In this document: one piece after another, positions 996 through 62,465 of the stretch | Layout of the letters: each line of letters starts with the position of its first letter | Numbering within the stretch: the first letter of the stretch is position 1 | Translations under genes and position numbers: made by a program | Source of the DNA: Clostridia bacterium | Lineage (GTDB): Bacteria > Bacillota > Clostridia > Oscillospirales > CAG-272 | Assembly (NCBI GenBank): GCA_017456005.1 | Contig: JAFTLJ010000096.1 | Span: 1,597-65,596 of the forward strand | DNA: 64,000 nt | Direction of reading: 5' to 3' | The notes under the pieces: generated by a model | Seen by the model: only the letters and a program-made list of their open reading frames with translations | Database searches by the model: none | What the model was told of the DNA's origin: nothing

Positions 996-1180
996 ATCCT
1001 TCCCCCTTTTTTCTCTCGTTTTCTCCCTACAGTATACCCCGACGTTCCCCCAATGTCAAGACGGCAGAGGGGCAGAGAAGAAAAAAAGGTGAACCTCGCC
1101 TCTGCATTCTTAGCGGAGAAAACACGAACACCACCAAGGAAATCTCTTTGGTGGTGTTCTTTGTTGACGACGGCTAAGCA

Positions 1181-1205
1181 AAGCCTCCCTTGTGTAAAGG
1201 GAGCC
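1181..1205. repeat. Short palindromic REP/MITE-like repeat (CTCCCTTGTGTAAAGGGAG)
   Basis: Palindrome CTCCCTT-GTGTA-AAGGGAG; related copy on the opposite strand at 31411-31433. Confidence 0.55.
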
Positions 1206-1482
1206 TTATATGCGCCGTTCTTCTGCGGATAGTGGGTTCGGGCTTCTGCCCGATCGTGCGAGGATGTCCACGCGCTATGCTTGCCCCGGACGCCGGGCGT
1301 CGGGAAAGCGGAAAATGCGAGTTCGTAATTTGACTTTTTTATCTTTTTGTGTTAAACTATTGCTGTAAATATTAAAGCAAAAGTTGAATTGCGTTGGTAA
1401 ACTGCTTGGTGTAAAAGTTTAAAAAAGATATGTATAATTAGGGTACAAAAGCGCTTTTGAATTATCACAAAGGAGAATGATT

Positions 1483-2538
1483 ATGTCTATTGGAACTACA
1501 ATCAAAAAACTTCGTCGTGACAGAAATATCACACAGGAGCAGTTTGCTGAAATGTTGGGCGTTTCTACAAACGCTGTCTCGCAGTGGGAGTGCGACAAGA
1601 CCGCACCCGATATTTCACACCTTCCCGTGTTAGCAAATATTTTTGAGGTCAGCGCGGATGTCCTTCTTGAAATTGATATTGCCAAAAGCAAAAAGCAATC
1701 CGAGATCAAAGAATTTACAGCCAAGTACGCAGAATTTCACAGCCAAGGAAAAACAGAAGAAAGACTAAATCTCTGCCGTGCAATGCAGAAGAAATATCCA
1801 AACGACGAGACCGTGCGTTACTTCTTGATGAGAGTATTGCAAAACGGATATATCGACGAAAGCTTTGATGAGATTGTTATGCTCGGTGAACAGCTTATGG
1901 AATCCACCAATATGGAATATCGAATGGGAGCCATTCGCGGTCTGTGCTTTACCCATTTGCACAAGGGTAACAGAACTAAAGCTTTACAGTATGCGGATAT
2001 GATTCCTCCGACAGAAGATCTCCATTTACATGTTTTAGAAGGTAGTGAACTTGTAGAGCATTGTCAGAATTATTTCTGGAAGATTTGTGACAGAATGTAC
2101 CTCTACATGGCGTATTTGCTTGATTGCACGGAAGCCGGGTACACCCACGATGAAAAACATGAAATGTGGGATACTCTATACAATATGTTCCACATGATTT
2201 TCTCTAACCAGGATTTCGGATTTTGGCATGACCGCTTGGCTCGAATCAGCTTCTTTATGGCACTTGAAAGTGGGAAAGCAGGGACGTATGAAAAAGCAAT
2301 CTGTGAGCTTGAACAAATGCTTGCTCATATCGAAAGGGAACAAACCTTTACTAATATTTCACATTCGTCCTTGCTTGTCAATAGAATTAAAATCGATCAA
2401 ACCAATATTGCCAAGAGCAGCACAGAAACGCTCGGTCACGTTTATTTGAGATATCTCAATAACAATGATGCGGTGTTTGCCTCGATCAAGGATATGCCTC
2501 GCTATTTGAACATCAAAGAACGGCTTGCAGAGCTGTAA
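1483..2538 (+). CDS. XRE-family HTH transcriptional regulator with long helical (TPR-like) C-terminal region
   Basis: N-terminal IGTTIKKLRR..TQEQFAEMLGVSTNAVSQWE..PDI HTH_3 motif; SD AAGGAG 8 nt before ATG 1483; terminator GCCCCGC..GCGGGGC-TTTT follows the stop. Confidence 0.85.
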   Translation: MSIGTTIKKLRRDRNITQEQFAEMLGVSTNAVSQWECDKTAPDISHLPVLANIFEVSADVLLEIDIAKSKKQSEIKEFTAKYAEFHSQGKTEERLNLCRAMQKKYPNDETVRYFLMRVLQNGYIDESFDEIVMLGEQLMESTNMEYRMGAIRGLCFTHLHKGNRTKALQYADMIPPTEDLHLHVLEGSELVEHCQNYFWKICDRMYLYMAYLLDCTEAGYTHDEKHEMWDTLYNMFHMIFSNQDFGFWHDRLARISFFMALESGKAGTYEKAICELEQMLAHIEREQTFTNISHSSLLVNRIKIDQTNIAKSSTETLGHVYLRYLNNNDAVFASIKDMPRYLNIKERLAEL

Positions 2539-2703
2539 TGCTCGCCCCGCCACGCGCGGGGCTTTTCTTTGTTTCCTGCATATCAAAAGCCACCACGAAA
2601 AACGTGGTGGCTCATTTCAATTTTACCGCTAATTTTTCAGACCTTCCCCCGAGCTATTTTTTTGCTTGAATTATATTTATAAAGTTCTTTGAAAGGCTTT
2701 CTT

Positions 2704-54217: not shown

Positions 54218-54334
54218 CATAAAAGAAAAAAACAGACTGTCGTCTCTGCTTTCTTAGCGGAGAAATAGGCTGCACAAAAAACATCGTCAGAGAACTTGTT
54301 TTCTCTGACGATTTGTGTTATAATGGAATGGGTG

Positions 54335-54874
54335 ATGAAGATGGATAACGAAAAAGAATTACCAAAACGAAAAGATATCCGTTTGAAAAACTTTGACTAT
54401 AGTTCTCCCGGTGCCTATTTTGTGACAATATGTACTGAAAACCGGAAAAATTACTTTTGGAGTGGTGAACTGAATCCGCAAATATTTGAATGGCACTCCG
54501 TAGGGGCGAACTGTGTTCGCCCGCAAAATCTCCCATTGTCCAACATTGGAAATGCCGTTCTAGAGGAATTGGAAAAATGGCATAAAACATATGAATCTGT
54601 GGCATTGTGTTCATACGTTATTATGCCGAATCATTTGCATATTATGATTTTCATCTCTGCCGATGAATACGGGCGACCGCAGGTCGCCCCTACGATAGAT
54701 AGGATGGTAAAGCAATTTAAGGGATCTGTTACCAAAAAGATTGGACATCCTATTTGGCAGAAATCTTTTATGGAACACGTAATCCGAAACAAGCATGATT
54801 TTGAAACCAGATCAAAATATATCTACGAAAACCCTCTTCGGTGGTACTATGACGAATTGTACGCGGAAGAATAG
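54335..54874 (+). CDS. REP-associated tyrosine transposase (RAYT, Y1 HUH family)
   Basis: RKDIRL..FDYSSPGAYFVTICT, YVIMPNHLH (HUH), WQKSFMEHVIR, YIYENPLRW. Confidence 0.9.
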   Translation: MKMDNEKELPKRKDIRLKNFDYSSPGAYFVTICTENRKNYFWSGELNPQIFEWHSVGANCVRPQNLPLSNIGNAVLEELEKWHKTYESVALCSYVIMPNHLHIMIFISADEYGRPQVAPTIDRMVKQFKGSVTKKIGHPIWQKSFMEHVIRNKHDFETRSKYIYENPLRWYYDELYAEE

Positions 54875-54932
54875 GGGCATGGGCTTTGCCCGATGCCTTT
54901 GTAAAACAAAGGCGAAACTGGCGCGATAAAAC

Positions 54933-55313
54933 ATGGAAGGAAAAAATATGAATATTCTGTATGATTTATATATTAGTTGCACTGAGGAAGAATGCGGCAA
55001 AAAATATTGGGCAGAGCATCTTATAGGTACTTTCAAAACTAAAGATAAAGCCACTACTACGATGAAAAAAGTAATGAGTGAAGGTAAACCGTTTTCAAAG
55101 CCCGATTGTGAGCCACGAATACAGGAGGTGGAATTAGTTGGAGAAATTTTAAATGTTGATTCTGTATATCGCTTTTTTGGATATAACAAAGATGGAGATA
55201 TAATTTGTAGCTCTTATTATGCAGAAAAAGCTACAGCAATCCAAGATTTCATAAGGGCAAAGAAAAACAATTATGGACGAGATTGGTCTTTGAACACCTA
55301 TAAATTAGGATAA
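54933..55313 (+). CDS. Hypothetical protein (AT-rich cargo)
   Basis: 126 aa ORF (start may be 54948), followed by hairpin CCCCCGACAGA..TCTGTCGGGGG. Confidence 0.6.
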   Translation: MEGKNMNILYDLYISCTEEECGKKYWAEHLIGTFKTKDKATTTMKKVMSEGKPFSKPDCEPRIQEVELVGEILNVDSVYRFFGYNKDGDIICSSYYAEKATAIQDFIRAKKNNYGRDWSLNTYKLG

Positions 55314-55408
55314 TTACCGTTTTTTTATACAAAAATCCCCCGACAGACTTTAGAAAAATCTGTCGGGGGGTATCTCTTTGTTTTTTGCGGATCAAATATT
55401 GCTTATCC

Positions 55409-55456
55409 GTAGGGGAGACCTGCGGTCTCCCGCGGGCGAACACAGTTCGCCCCTAC
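55409..55456. repeat. GTAG-type REP doublet (REPIN-like)
   Basis: GTAGGGGAGACCTGCGGTCTCCC-GC-GGGCGAACACAGTTCGCCCCTAC; sister REPs at 54500-54522 and 54671-54693. Confidence 0.88.
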
Positions 55457-55535
55457 CGTGTGTTTGTGAAAGATTTTGCGCTTTCTCCGCTAATTTTGCA
55501 CGCGCTCGTGCGACAGTCTGTTTTGCTATGTAAGC

Positions 55536-61965: not shown

Positions 61966-62324
61966 TTGGCGCGATACTCCGATAAGAGTATCACGCCAGT
62001 TCTATTCGCCTCTCGGCGAGTTCTATTGCTTTGCAGTGATATTCGGCTTACGCCGAGTGATATTCGCTTCGCGAGTTTTGGAGGCGAATAGAATATCACT
62101 GTGAGGCGTAACCGAACAATATCACTGCCCGCAAGGGCAATATCACTCTTTGCGAAAGCAAAGAATATCACTCATAGACAGCAGAAAAAGAGAGAGTCTT
62201 ACGGAATTTTGCTTCCGCATGACTCTCCCTTCTGTTTTATCGCGCCAGTTTCGCATTTGTTTTACAAATGCATCGGGCTGCGCCCATACCCCTATCTTAA
62301 TTTATCCGATAAGAACATCACACA
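61966..62324. repeat. Composite palindromic element with AGTGATATT/AATATCACT hairpin array
   Basis: Four AGT(G/T)(A/C)TATT units and four AATATCACT units, mostly separated by short hairpins; nested in an 18-bp IR (61948-61965 / 62327-62344). Confidence 0.75.
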
Positions 62325-62465
62325 TTTTGTTCGTACTCCTTTTGAGTCTTTTTATAACATAGGAAATTGCGCGCAAATCGTGCGCAATTGCTTGTTCAAA
62401 AAAAGTTTTCCTTATGCAAAAATGCCCGATTTTCGGGCATTTTATAGTTGCCGAAGGCAACTTTT

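Follow-up and report, generated by a model that had tools for sequence, protein, structure and literature searches.

A non-autonomous gene cassette inside a host transcription terminator of a Clostridia bacterium, and a large serine recombinase that may move its family

Positions 54242-55505 of the 64,000-nucleotide stretch of Clostridia DNA analysed here (the window) are best read as a non-autonomous mobile gene cassette that interrupts a host transcription terminator at its apex; the two genes on either side are convergent. The insertion is polymorphic, its ends recur in a widespread family, an identical dinucleotide flanks it on either side, its target is of a type common to the family, and copies with these ends that carry a recombinase occur in related genomes. 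As judged from sequence comparisons, the favoured and moderately probable account is that a multi-targeting serine recombinase acts in trans on the cassette to move it.

Insertion site and empty allele

The strings quoted in a first, sequence-only reading of this DNA were found in their places, and the flanking genes are convergent as it had described. All 4 public runs examined (4 studies) yielded contigs of the same species that lack the insert and bridge position 54239 to 55506, with 1266 bases skipped and four ambiguous bases, TCGT, at the joint. This true empty allele reads AAAACAGACTG-TCGT-GCGACAGTCTGTTTT and forms a stem of 13-14 bp. The stem of 18 bp that had been obtained by deleting the insert on paper was over-extended, since GCACGCGC (55498-55505) is part of the element's right arm and not of the target. 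The element thus delimited spans 1264 bp and is bordered by a 2-bp direct repeat, TC on left and right (4 bp of identity at this copy), in place of the duplication of at most 1 bp formerly proposed. An intact empty hairpin, which had been anticipated in relatives, is present both in close strains and in a sister species (G005), where a naive terminator lies between both conserved flanking genes; two more empty terminators, corresponding to other copies of the family, were found in G002 and G005. The contigs of the four runs hardly cover the interior of the cassette (54932-55316), and there they are uninformative beyond the bridging contigs. The coordinates of all the features are collected in Table 1.

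Table 1. Features of the focal cassette, its target and two further family members in the window.
Feature	Position	Strand	Evidence or remark
Left half of split host terminator (A-tract and stem AAAACAGACTG)	54229..54241	.	empty allele in 4/4 runs and G005
TC, copy 1 of flanking dinucleotide	54240-54241	.	last two bases of left terminator half
Left 12-nt outer arm GTCTCTGCTTTC; family consensus CTCTCTGCATTC	54242..54253	+	67 distinct L ends
Left inverted-repeat box TTAGCGGAGAAA	54254..54265	+	repeat matches; best-conserved part of the ends
Left-end hairpin, terminator-like on both strands	54283..54312	.	module recurs at many L ends
Extended -10-like string TGTTATAAT after left-end hairpin	54316-54324		seen by eye; not listed by the scan
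Cargo gene 1, RAYT-like HUH/Y1 protein	54341..54874	+	177 aa from ATG at 54341
REP-like hairpin (GTAG and palindrome) inside RAYT-like gene	54500..54522	+	sequence
Further REP-like hairpin copies	54671-54693, 55409-55431, 55434-55456	-, +, -	sequence, self-matches on opposite strands
Conserved leader-like module before cargo gene 2, repeated in many cassettes	54872..54932	+	
Cargo gene 2, 126-aa ORF	54933..55313	+	
Terminator-like hairpin closing cargo, also facing convergent host gene	55337..55369	.	
Right inverted-repeat box, TTTCTCCGCTAA on + strand	55482..55493	-	repeat matches
Right 12-nt outer arm TTTTGCACGCGC, R1 type; consensus TTTTGCACGCCC	55494..55505	-	46 distinct R1 ends
TC copy 2 (55506-55507), remaining loop and right half of host terminator	55506..55524	.	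sequence, empty allele
Second family member	1098..2644	+	L arm 1098-1109, box 1110-1121
Second member, right side	2621-2632, 2633-2644		R box, R arm
Second member cargo, HTH(XRE)-type regulator gene	1477-2538		
Second member, flanking TC	1096-1097 and 2645-2646		
MITE-like member of 357 bp without ORF, inside terminator	61968..62324	-	
MITE-like member, flanking TT	61966-61967 and 62325-62326		

Anatomy of the ends

Both ends of the family are symmetric and consist of a 12-nt outer arm followed by TTAGCGGAGAA. The 12-bp inverted repeat TTAGCGGAGAAA was confirmed at both ends of the focal cassette, with a third copy in the second member, and once the ends are corrected it sits 12 nt inside both of them, which does away with the asymmetry first ascribed to it. 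At one mismatch or fewer, the window holds three matches to this string against 0.58 expected, and 4 of 100 shuffles reach three; the count within the window is weak alone and decisive genome-wide. Conservation is strongest in the box (positions 13-23, counted from the tip) and poor at the arm tips (positions 1-4) across the family, and one end variant is a perfect 12-6-12 palindrome. Variants of the box read TTAGCGG, TTATCGG and TTAACGG, and the arms are of L, R1 and R2 types. Hairpins inside both ends had also been described correctly, and that of the left end probably stands in for the upstream host gene's own terminator, which the insertion disrupts.

The cassette family and its targets

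About 40 family ends were counted in the source genome of the window (G000, 94.65% complete), and the family is widespread in related Oscillospiraceae/Eubacteriales MAGs of gut Clostridia, with diverse cargo, which bears out the proposal that gene cassettes with common ends and unrelated contents form a repeated family directed at terminators. A phyletic profile of ends with the pattern TTANCGGAGAA lay above control in most of family f1, a signal too noisy to be read as presence or absence. The second member in the window has its true end at 2644 instead of the 2636 first given; its two flanks are unpaired, the partner of the right flank lying at the end of contig C28. The MITE-like member contains a match to the Rfam motif Gut-1, the sole Rfam match reported. 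Moreover, the cargo of a cassette on contig C35 is 96% identical in G004, which indicates that cassette cargo is exchanged between species; in G004 it lies in a different context, from which no empty site was gained.

When arms of 12 nt are assumed at both ends, the flanking dinucleotides are identical in 23 of 24 automatically paired members, against just 0-7 of 24 for any other combination of arm lengths. The dinucleotide tracks the subfamily (TT in 36/39, TC in 16/19), as expected of a conservative 2-nt crossover core and not of a random duplication, and it lies in the loop of the flanking hairpin or next to it.

Similar borders might be left by a DDE-type transposase that makes a 2-bp target-site duplication, as in the IS30 family, and prefers palindromes, with the cassettes as its mobile insertion cassettes (MICs) and the LSR (large serine recombinase) described below as mere cargo. 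IS30 generates duplications of 2-3 bp and favours palindromic hot spots, IS1397 and ISKpn1 insert in the loops of REPs, and IS1630 targets terminator-like repeats, so that palindromic or stem-loop targets downstream of genes are common to these elements and to the cassettes. The inverted terminal repeats with a short flanking direct repeat fit such an origin, as do the varied dinucleotides of the MITE-like copies (AT, AA, TT and TA). It is nonetheless an unlikely one: no transposase with family ends was found, no cassette examined contains a DDE gene, the terminal arm bases are not conserved and the dinucleotide is subfamily-specific. In the source genome, the rve matches are only an IS481-like insertion sequence, which has its own inverted repeats and is inserted into a cassette, and an IS3-like one in an unrelated island, and PF01609 has no match. 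Furthermore, IS1397, ISKpn1 and IS1630 are DDE elements of the IS3 and IS30 families with their own transposase, and the duplication made by IS1630 comprises the entire repeat.

The 24 paired targets are alike in architecture, not in sequence, and their terminator stems have no sequence in common. This bears on the analogy with the IS1111 group (IS110 family) drawn in the sequence-only reading. In an element of this type a DEDD recombinase with an RNA guide would act on subterminal repeats and stem-loop targets. The likenesses are stem-loop targets, little or no duplication and repeats set in from the tips, and a 2-nt core is compatible with the chemistry of the IS110 family. A fixed guide, however, could not specify targets that differ in sequence, the repeats are symmetric (12 nt from both tips), a 2-bp repeat flanks the element, and no element examined holds a DEDD gene. 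In the source genome PF01548 has one match of 23.4 bits, below the cut-off of 29 bits, in a 1411-aa ORF, and PF02371 has none, which at 94.65% completeness does not prove absence. With no DEDD transposase above cut-off in the genome, the analogy is not supported, and this mode of movement appears hardly credible.

The terminator of the xer gene itself holds a cassette in the source genome and, independently, in G008. In IMEX elements and in the pdif modules of Acinetobacter, inverted strings resembling recombinase sites bracket gene modules, and the inverted site-like strings around the cassettes, together with the Xer-like gene beside one copy, recall these systems. The sole housekeeping Xer-like tyrosine recombinase, whose gene is present in 39 of 41 relatives, might then move the cassettes, with the arm-TTAGCG-arm strings, perfectly palindromic in the 12-6-12 variant, serving as dif-like sites. 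This idea was rejected because the empty targets are naive terminators without any pre-existing dif-like site and because the crossover takes place at the arm tips, the 2-nt flanking repeat being 12 nt outside the putative spacer. Inverted sites at the two ends would, moreover, yield inversion and not insertion, all of which makes a role for Xer very improbable.

Cargo of the focal cassette

The focal cargo comprises a RAYT-like HUH gene, REP hairpins belonging to it and one ORF without family match, and contains no LSR. The RAYT-like gene had been overlooked in the first reading. Its protein shows visible HLH and YIYENP motifs and scores 63 bits against NF047646, the model of REP-associated tyrosine transposases (cut-off 80), and no Pfam family, Y1_Tnp included, matches it at E<=0.01. 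Of 41 related genomes, 19 contain homologues. Four GTAG-palindromes are spread over the gene and the DNA after it; the first pairs with the fourth and the second with the third in inverted orientation, and in metagenome contigs these hairpins show a very high summed depth and REP-doublet joints. The leader-like module reaches a depth of 318-2386 in the same kind of contigs, compared with 4-19 in the flanks. For the 126-aa product of the second gene domain-profile searches gave no family match, and Rfam at gathering thresholds reported nothing in the focal cassette.

The presence of this gene raises the question of whether the RAYT-like HUH (Y1) protein, encoded in this and many sister cassettes, could mobilise the family via single-stranded DNA, with insertion into the exposed loop of a terminator hairpin. 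In favour of this, the only intact RAYT-like gene of the source genome lies in the focal cassette. By eye, 8 loci in different species show a cassette right end with the REP-hairpin module that typifies RAYT cassettes behind it; insertion is into a hairpin loop, and both ends carry hairpins. HUH Y1 transposition, however, gives no flanking repeat that co-varies with the target, and the protein has classical REP substrates of its own (GTAG and palindrome), doublets of which are dispersed in these communities. Some genomes, such as G036, have cassette modules without any RAYT-like match, and the gene is often degraded; this route seems quite improbable.

Recombinase-bearing copies

A search for copies enclosing a recombinase, whether of the IS110, serine or tyrosine type, had been suggested in the first reading, and an LSR turned up. 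This protein of 547 aa combines the Pfam domains Resolvase, Recombinase, Zn_ribbon_recom and DUF4368, and ends 60 nt inside a family L end at 6 loci across G041, G042, G043, G044, G005 and G004. Of 17 metagenome loci examined whose LSR is a close relative (83-98% identity), 10 have the same arrangement, and two of these share a flank. Intact LSR genes lie, for instance, in G005 (C195:1391-3031) and at locus L172 (923-2563). Each copy adjoins a different flank of GC-rich stem and T-run, amounting to about 15 different terminators. The LSR is 93-100% identical across hosts in 5 of the 6 genome loci (the copy of G044, at 58%, is truncated), and flanking core DNA is 71-86% identical between species within genus g1. 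A complete copy of 5.9 kb on contig C10 of G041 also possesses an R end of the family; TA borders it on left and right, and its flanks are complementary to each other. The dinucleotides of the LSR-bearing copies are TT (8), TA (2), TG (1), TC (1) and AT (1). About 32 nt of the L end and about 25 nt of the R end are common to cassettes and LSR element, and both have the 2-nt repeat. In one contig (run X3) an R end is joined to an L end as R arm-TT-L arm, exactly 12+2+12 nt, which could be a circle junction or a head-to-tail pair; no R-core-L junction was found in the source genome or in the other assembled genomes and loci examined.

Two other groups of candidates were discarded. In 9 related genomes, family ends are absent after the more distant LSR homologues (35-44% identity), and a small resolvase of the source genome (C62:118745-119311) occurs in just 12 of 41 relatives and is missing from cassette-rich genomes. 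The closest plasmid-borne relatives of the LSR are at most 44% identical.

Mobilisation in trans by a serine recombinase

No cassette-moving recombinase is recognisable in the window, in agreement with the earlier proposal; that the cassettes move in trans, its other half, is an interpretation. The DUF4368 LSR with matching ends is the probable enzyme, and we infer both its catalysis of the movement and the manner in which it reads terminators. The master element with the same ends would encode this multi-targeting (TndX/TnpX-like) LSR, which would act on the cassette in trans and excise it as a circle, with the joined ends forming R arm, 2-nt core and L arm. Flanked by the inverted boxes, these joined ends would make up an attP-like site of about 50 bp with dyad symmetry, able to recombine with a terminator, whose DNA is likewise dyad-symmetric (A-tract, GC-rich stem, loop, stem and T-tract). 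A staggered cut of 2 nt, made in a T-Y dinucleotide that coincides with the dyad centre or lies near it, would leave the same dinucleotide on both sides of the cassette. The cassette itself supplies terminator-like hairpins, a promoter-like string and the cargo.

Several observations count against the LSR. The source genome (94.65% complete) has no ortholog, its best match being 26-28% identical, and the cassette-rich relatives G021, G008 and G006 have no close copy either. The LSR clade is narrow, mostly 93-100% identical, and the cassette ends are old and diverse. Both ends are seen only in the copy of G041, where the LSR gene is interrupted by an in-frame stop; in metagenome contigs neither an R end within 8 kb upstream of the LSR nor a partner flank was found. 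The varied dinucleotides of the LSR copies are not simply predicted by a strict core-matching serine recombinase, and neither the poorly conserved arm tips nor the terminator stems, which share no sequence, account for target recognition.

Relation to known systems

In Tn4451 and Tn5397 a circular joint is formed by the two ends. The system described here resembles Tn4451/Tn4453 (TnpX), Tn5397 (TndX) and the DUF4368 clade (Durrant et al. 2022, PMC10083194) in having a DUF4368 LSR at one end of the element, many insertion sites and a 2-nt core at both junctions. DUF4368 marks the clade of multi-targeting LSRs that includes TndX-like transposases, and for one such LSR 21 attB sites with a TT core and T/A-rich ends are described (PMC10083194; PMC13137831); this TT core with A/T-rich outer flanks is a further likeness. 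Unlike in those systems, insertion here is into the loop of intrinsic terminator hairpins, and many self-expressed gene cassettes without recombinase share the ends. Neither 'terminator' nor 'palindrom' occurs in the main text of PMC10083194 or PMC13137831, and we found no literature report of terminator-targeting serine-recombinase cassettes; the supplements of PMC10083194 (target-site motifs and attB lists) may already include this LSR or terminator-like targets.

Like MICs and MITEs, the cassettes hold passenger genes or non-coding sequence bracketed by the terminal repeats of an autonomous element, contain no transposase and would move in trans. MICs, for instance MIC231 of Bacillus cereus, and MITEs are derived from DDE insertion sequences, whereas the autonomous partner here appears to be a serine-recombinase element and the common part is just about 25-32 nt per end. 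The terminal and flanking repeats of the cassettes are those of the autonomous LSR element, whose recombinase is absent inside. Unlike the IS1111 group, on the other hand, they combine the lack of a DEDD transposase with symmetric 12/12 ends and sequence-varied targets.

The cassettes of integrons are also small, diverse and often single-gene, belong to a common pool exchanged between species, and have hairpin-forming DNA at the recombination point. In contrast to them, there is no IntI, attI or attC here (the sole Xer-like protein of the source genome scores 87 bits on integrase_gron, cut-off 265), the cassettes are dispersed over terminators instead of arrayed, and each bears its own promoter-like and terminator-like modules.

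Biological meaning

As a tentative proposal, to which we give somewhat less than even weight, the system might be a dispersed, non-arrayed serine-recombinase counterpart of the integron. The LSR would recognise terminators by their architecture (A-tract, GC stem, T-Y at the dyad and T-tract) and not by their sequence, and would service a genus-spanning pool of self-contained cassettes, each with promoter, structured leader and replacement terminators, that could be parked in any terminator without harm to the flanking genes and exchanged between gut Clostridia.

Multi-targeting LSRs are under development as tools for genome engineering (PMC10083194, PMC13137831), for which a natural rule of target choice would be useful. 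If the account given here is true, transcription terminators, which follow most genes and form a structural class of sites, can serve an LSR as safe landing pads, and serine-recombinase transposons give rise to large families of non-autonomous gene cassettes just as DDE insertion sequences do. The account would also explain widespread repeats in ruminant and other gut Clostridia, including the Rfam Gut-1 motif, and small accessory genes (regulators, immunity-like proteins, RAYT) would have in the cassettes a means of passing between species.

Boundaries of the Focal Cassette and Its Ancestral Site

All the strings quoted in the sequence-only reading of this DNA were found in the window, where the 12-bp inverted repeat (box) of the focal cassette recurs in a second cassette. 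Within the window alone, this recurrence is only weakly beyond chance (three matches at ≤1 mismatch against 0.58 expected, a count reached by 4 of 100 shuffles), and across the whole source genome (G000, assembly GCA_017456005.1; 2.12 Mb, 101 contigs, 94.65% complete) it is decisively so. Contigs from 4/4 public runs, belonging to four studies, bridge position 54239 to 55506 with 1266 bases skipped and four ambiguous bases (TCGT) at the junction. These contigs, which come from the same species (5–6 differences per ~1 kb flank), therefore give the ancestral site as AAAACAGACTG-TCGT-GCGACAGTCTGTTTT, with a short loop and without the TTAGCG box, and in the sister species G005 the two conserved flanking genes are separated by this same plain terminator. 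The 18-bp terminator stem originally proposed is in fact one of 13–14 bp, as GCACG...CGTGC came from the right arm of the element itself. The corrected cassette has the box 12 nt from the tip at both ends and TC on either side, and it is nearly certain that it represents a polymorphic, 2-nt-flanked insertion of a non-autonomous family member at a terminator apex.

Coordinates of the cassettes and related features (window positions unless a contig is named)
Feature	Position	Remark
Left half of split terminator, AAAACAGACTGTC	54229-54241	
Focal cassette	54242-55505	1264 bp
Box TTAGCGGAGAAA, focal cassette	54254-54265 (+); 55482-55493 (-)	12 bp
Box TTAGCGGAGAAA, third copy	1110-1121	second cassette
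REP-like GTAG+palindrome hairpins	54500-54522; 54671-54693; 55409-55431; 55434-55456	focal cassette
Second cassette	1098-2644	
Partner of its right flank	G000 C28:17322-17641	contig end
MITE-like member	61968-62324	357 bp
Gut-1 RNA	61997-62068 (+)	inside MITE-like member
Palindromic MITE-like ends	61968-61997; G000 C8:17091-17125, C60:25460-25494, C42:433-467	
Solo palindrome	G000 C62:18206-18235	30 bp
IS481-like element	G000 C20:1-2620	
Cassette in xer terminator	G000 C63:22686-24582	
Locus L186, holding an LSR-bearing copy	G041:C10:12300-19400	

End Types and the Flanking Dinucleotide

About 40 boxes were found in G000, each preceded by a 12-nt arm of type L (CTCTCTGCATTC), R1 (GGGCGTGCAAAA, read inward) or R2 (TGTGTGATGTTC), and outside every arm lie a variable GC-rich stretch and an A-run, that is, half a terminator. 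Each half-end conserves TGCA at positions 6–9 and TTAGCGGAGAA at positions 13–23. When ends were paired automatically by flank complementarity only (24 pairs from G000, the related genomes G008 and G041, and contig-scan loci), 12-nt arms on both sides left identical flanking dinucleotides in 23 pairs, and all remaining arm-length pairings between 10 and 14 nt did so in 0–7. The single mismatch (G000 C96) is one base off, with a 3-nt ATT repeat. The same 2-nt rule was obeyed by additional pairs recognized by eye, namely G000 C10, two split pairs (C9/C1, C28/C88), G008:C5 and the MITE-like members of the window and of C8, C60 and C42. A solo arm-TTATCG-arm palindrome, lying without cargo at a terminator apex, breaks it. 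The dinucleotide sits in the loop or at the stem top, at the dyad or within about 3 nt, and is TT in 36/39 L ends of the 'cggcagag' type and TC in 16/19 of the 'acacgaacacc' type. Such a dependence on element subfamily is a prediction of a conserved crossover core, and random target duplication would not show it.

The copy previously placed at 1098-2636 is indeed a second family member with TC on either side, although its span had to be corrected and its flanks are unpaired. The terminator matching its right flank is empty in the related genome G002 and in G005, and the flanks are unpaired either because two cassettes recombined or because the assembly was joined via the shared left-end module.

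The MITE-like member of the window has no ORF, is TT-flanked within a terminator, and has sister copies in C8, C60 and C42. The Gut-1 RNA inside it (RF01706, 51.3 bits, cut-off 50), the only Rfam match near the family, may belong to this mobile element and not be an independent sRNA gene. One end of these members is a perfect 12-6-12 palindrome, whose TTAWCG centre is inverted in 2/6 copies as if the hairpin loop had flipped.

Candidate Enzymes

The IS110-like affinity initially suggested was not borne out, as PF01548 gave only a sub-threshold match (23.4 bits) and PF02371 had none in G000. A DDE enzyme was also set aside: a search of G000 gave no match to PF01609, and two rve matches belong to unrelated insertion sequences, one nested in the RAYT-like gene of another cassette. 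An IS481-like element so placed has a 438-aa open frame, an rve domain and its own inverted repeats.

The Xer-like protein is a single-copy housekeeping protein found in 39/41 relatives, and naive empty targets and inverted sites oppose this route. The terminator of its own gene is occupied by a cassette in G000, empty in G002, and independently occupied in G008 (C21, L067) by a different cassette with another end type; the site may be a hot spot, or it may be connected with the terminus region. Just upstream of xer, two order-level relatives (L040, L041) carry a near-perfect 13-6-13 palindrome, AATTATACAAAA-N6-TTTTGTATAATT, of which genus g1 conserves the right half alone; this palindrome may represent dif or an operator.

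The RAYT-like protein is likewise disfavoured as the mover, since it has its own GTAG-palindrome REPs, with doublets dispersed in these communities, and occurs in only 19/41 relatives. The four REP-like hairpins of the focal cassette, two of them within the RAYT-like coding region, form two nested inverted pairs, and in metagenome contigs these hairpins recur as doublets, at very high summed depth and with spacers of about 16–26 nt.

A Large Serine Recombinase at Family Ends

The clue to a candidate enzyme came from unpaired family ends. In G041, an L end (CTCTCTGCATTC-TTAGCGGAGAA-ATAGGCGGC) is followed by a hairpin and then by the stop codon of an outward-reading gene for a large serine recombinase (LSR) with Resolvase, Recombinase, Zn_ribbon_recom and DUF4368 domains; a family R end lies 5.9 kb beyond, with TA on either side and complementary terminator halves as flanks. 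The LSR gene of this sole complete copy has an in-frame stop in the zinc-ribbon region. Two genomes, G043 and the G000 congener G005, have intact genes with 94–96% identity to it; contig-edge fragments come from G042 and G004, and G044 has a decayed copy of 58% identity. In metagenomes, the L end lies exactly 60 nt past the LSR stop in 10/17 examined loci with a close LSR relative, each of the ten adjoining a different GC-stem and T-run flank except two with a common one. LSR-bearing elements also encode an S24/LexA-like repressor, and locus L201 an AAA_13 ATPase.

We therefore lean, with some reserve, towards the cassettes being moved in trans by the LSR. Our confidence is held there because this LSR was searched for and not found in G000 and several cassette-rich relatives, both ends are visible in one LSR copy only, the dinucleotides at LSR-bearing copies are mixed (TT 8, TA 2, TG 1, TC 1, AT 1), and the clade is young and narrow in comparison with the diverse cassette ends, which counts against this reading. 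In an excised circle, the joined ends would form a site (box'-R arm-core-L arm-box) about 50 bp long and dyad-symmetric, with the size and layout of an LSR attP. Terminators are likewise dyad-symmetric, with A/T tracts about 8–18 nt from the centre, and exactly the observed junctions would result if strands were exchanged with a 2-nt stagger at a T-Y dinucleotide on the dyad. In the public metagenome run X3, one contig (depth 13) has an R end linked to an L end by exactly 12+2+12 nt with a TT centre (joint 55501->54243), and no R-core-L junction was seen in the assembled genomes examined; the X3 joint is either a circle junction, possibly of a sister cassette, or a rare head-to-tail pair.

Both serine-recombinase transposons and multi-targeting LSRs have been described before, and for DDE elements MICs and MITEs are known. 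In the main text of Durrant et al. (PMC10083194), DUF4368 marks a 'multi-targeting' LSR clade including TndX-like transposases, for one of which 21 target sites are reported, their core being TT and their ends T/A-rich; PMC13137831 makes the same statements on this clade, and the main text of neither paper speaks of terminators or palindromes. Our literature search returned no report of recombinase-less gene cassettes with LSR-element ends, nor any account of terminator loops as an LSR target, points on which the supplements of PMC10083194 may bear.

Cargo and Spread of the Cassette Family

The cargo is diverse, usually one or two small genes. HTH(XRE)-TPR regulators are found, as are membrane proteins, small unknown proteins and a DUF559-like protein together with an AAA-kinase-like one; the focal cassette carries a 126-aa unknown ORF and a RAYT-like HUH protein that scores 63 bits against NF047646 (cut-off 80). 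Of ten further genomes in the genus, nine contain cassette modules, which also occur in several other genera, and the contig scan detected such ends in many MAGs of Oscillospiraceae, Eubacteriales and Clostridia, from animal guts according to record labels. The terminator-like hairpins at cassette ends could replace the split host terminator. Moreover, the cargo gene of G000 C35 shows 96% identity to its G004 copy, whereas the flanks are only 67–78% identical, and hence cargo moves between species.
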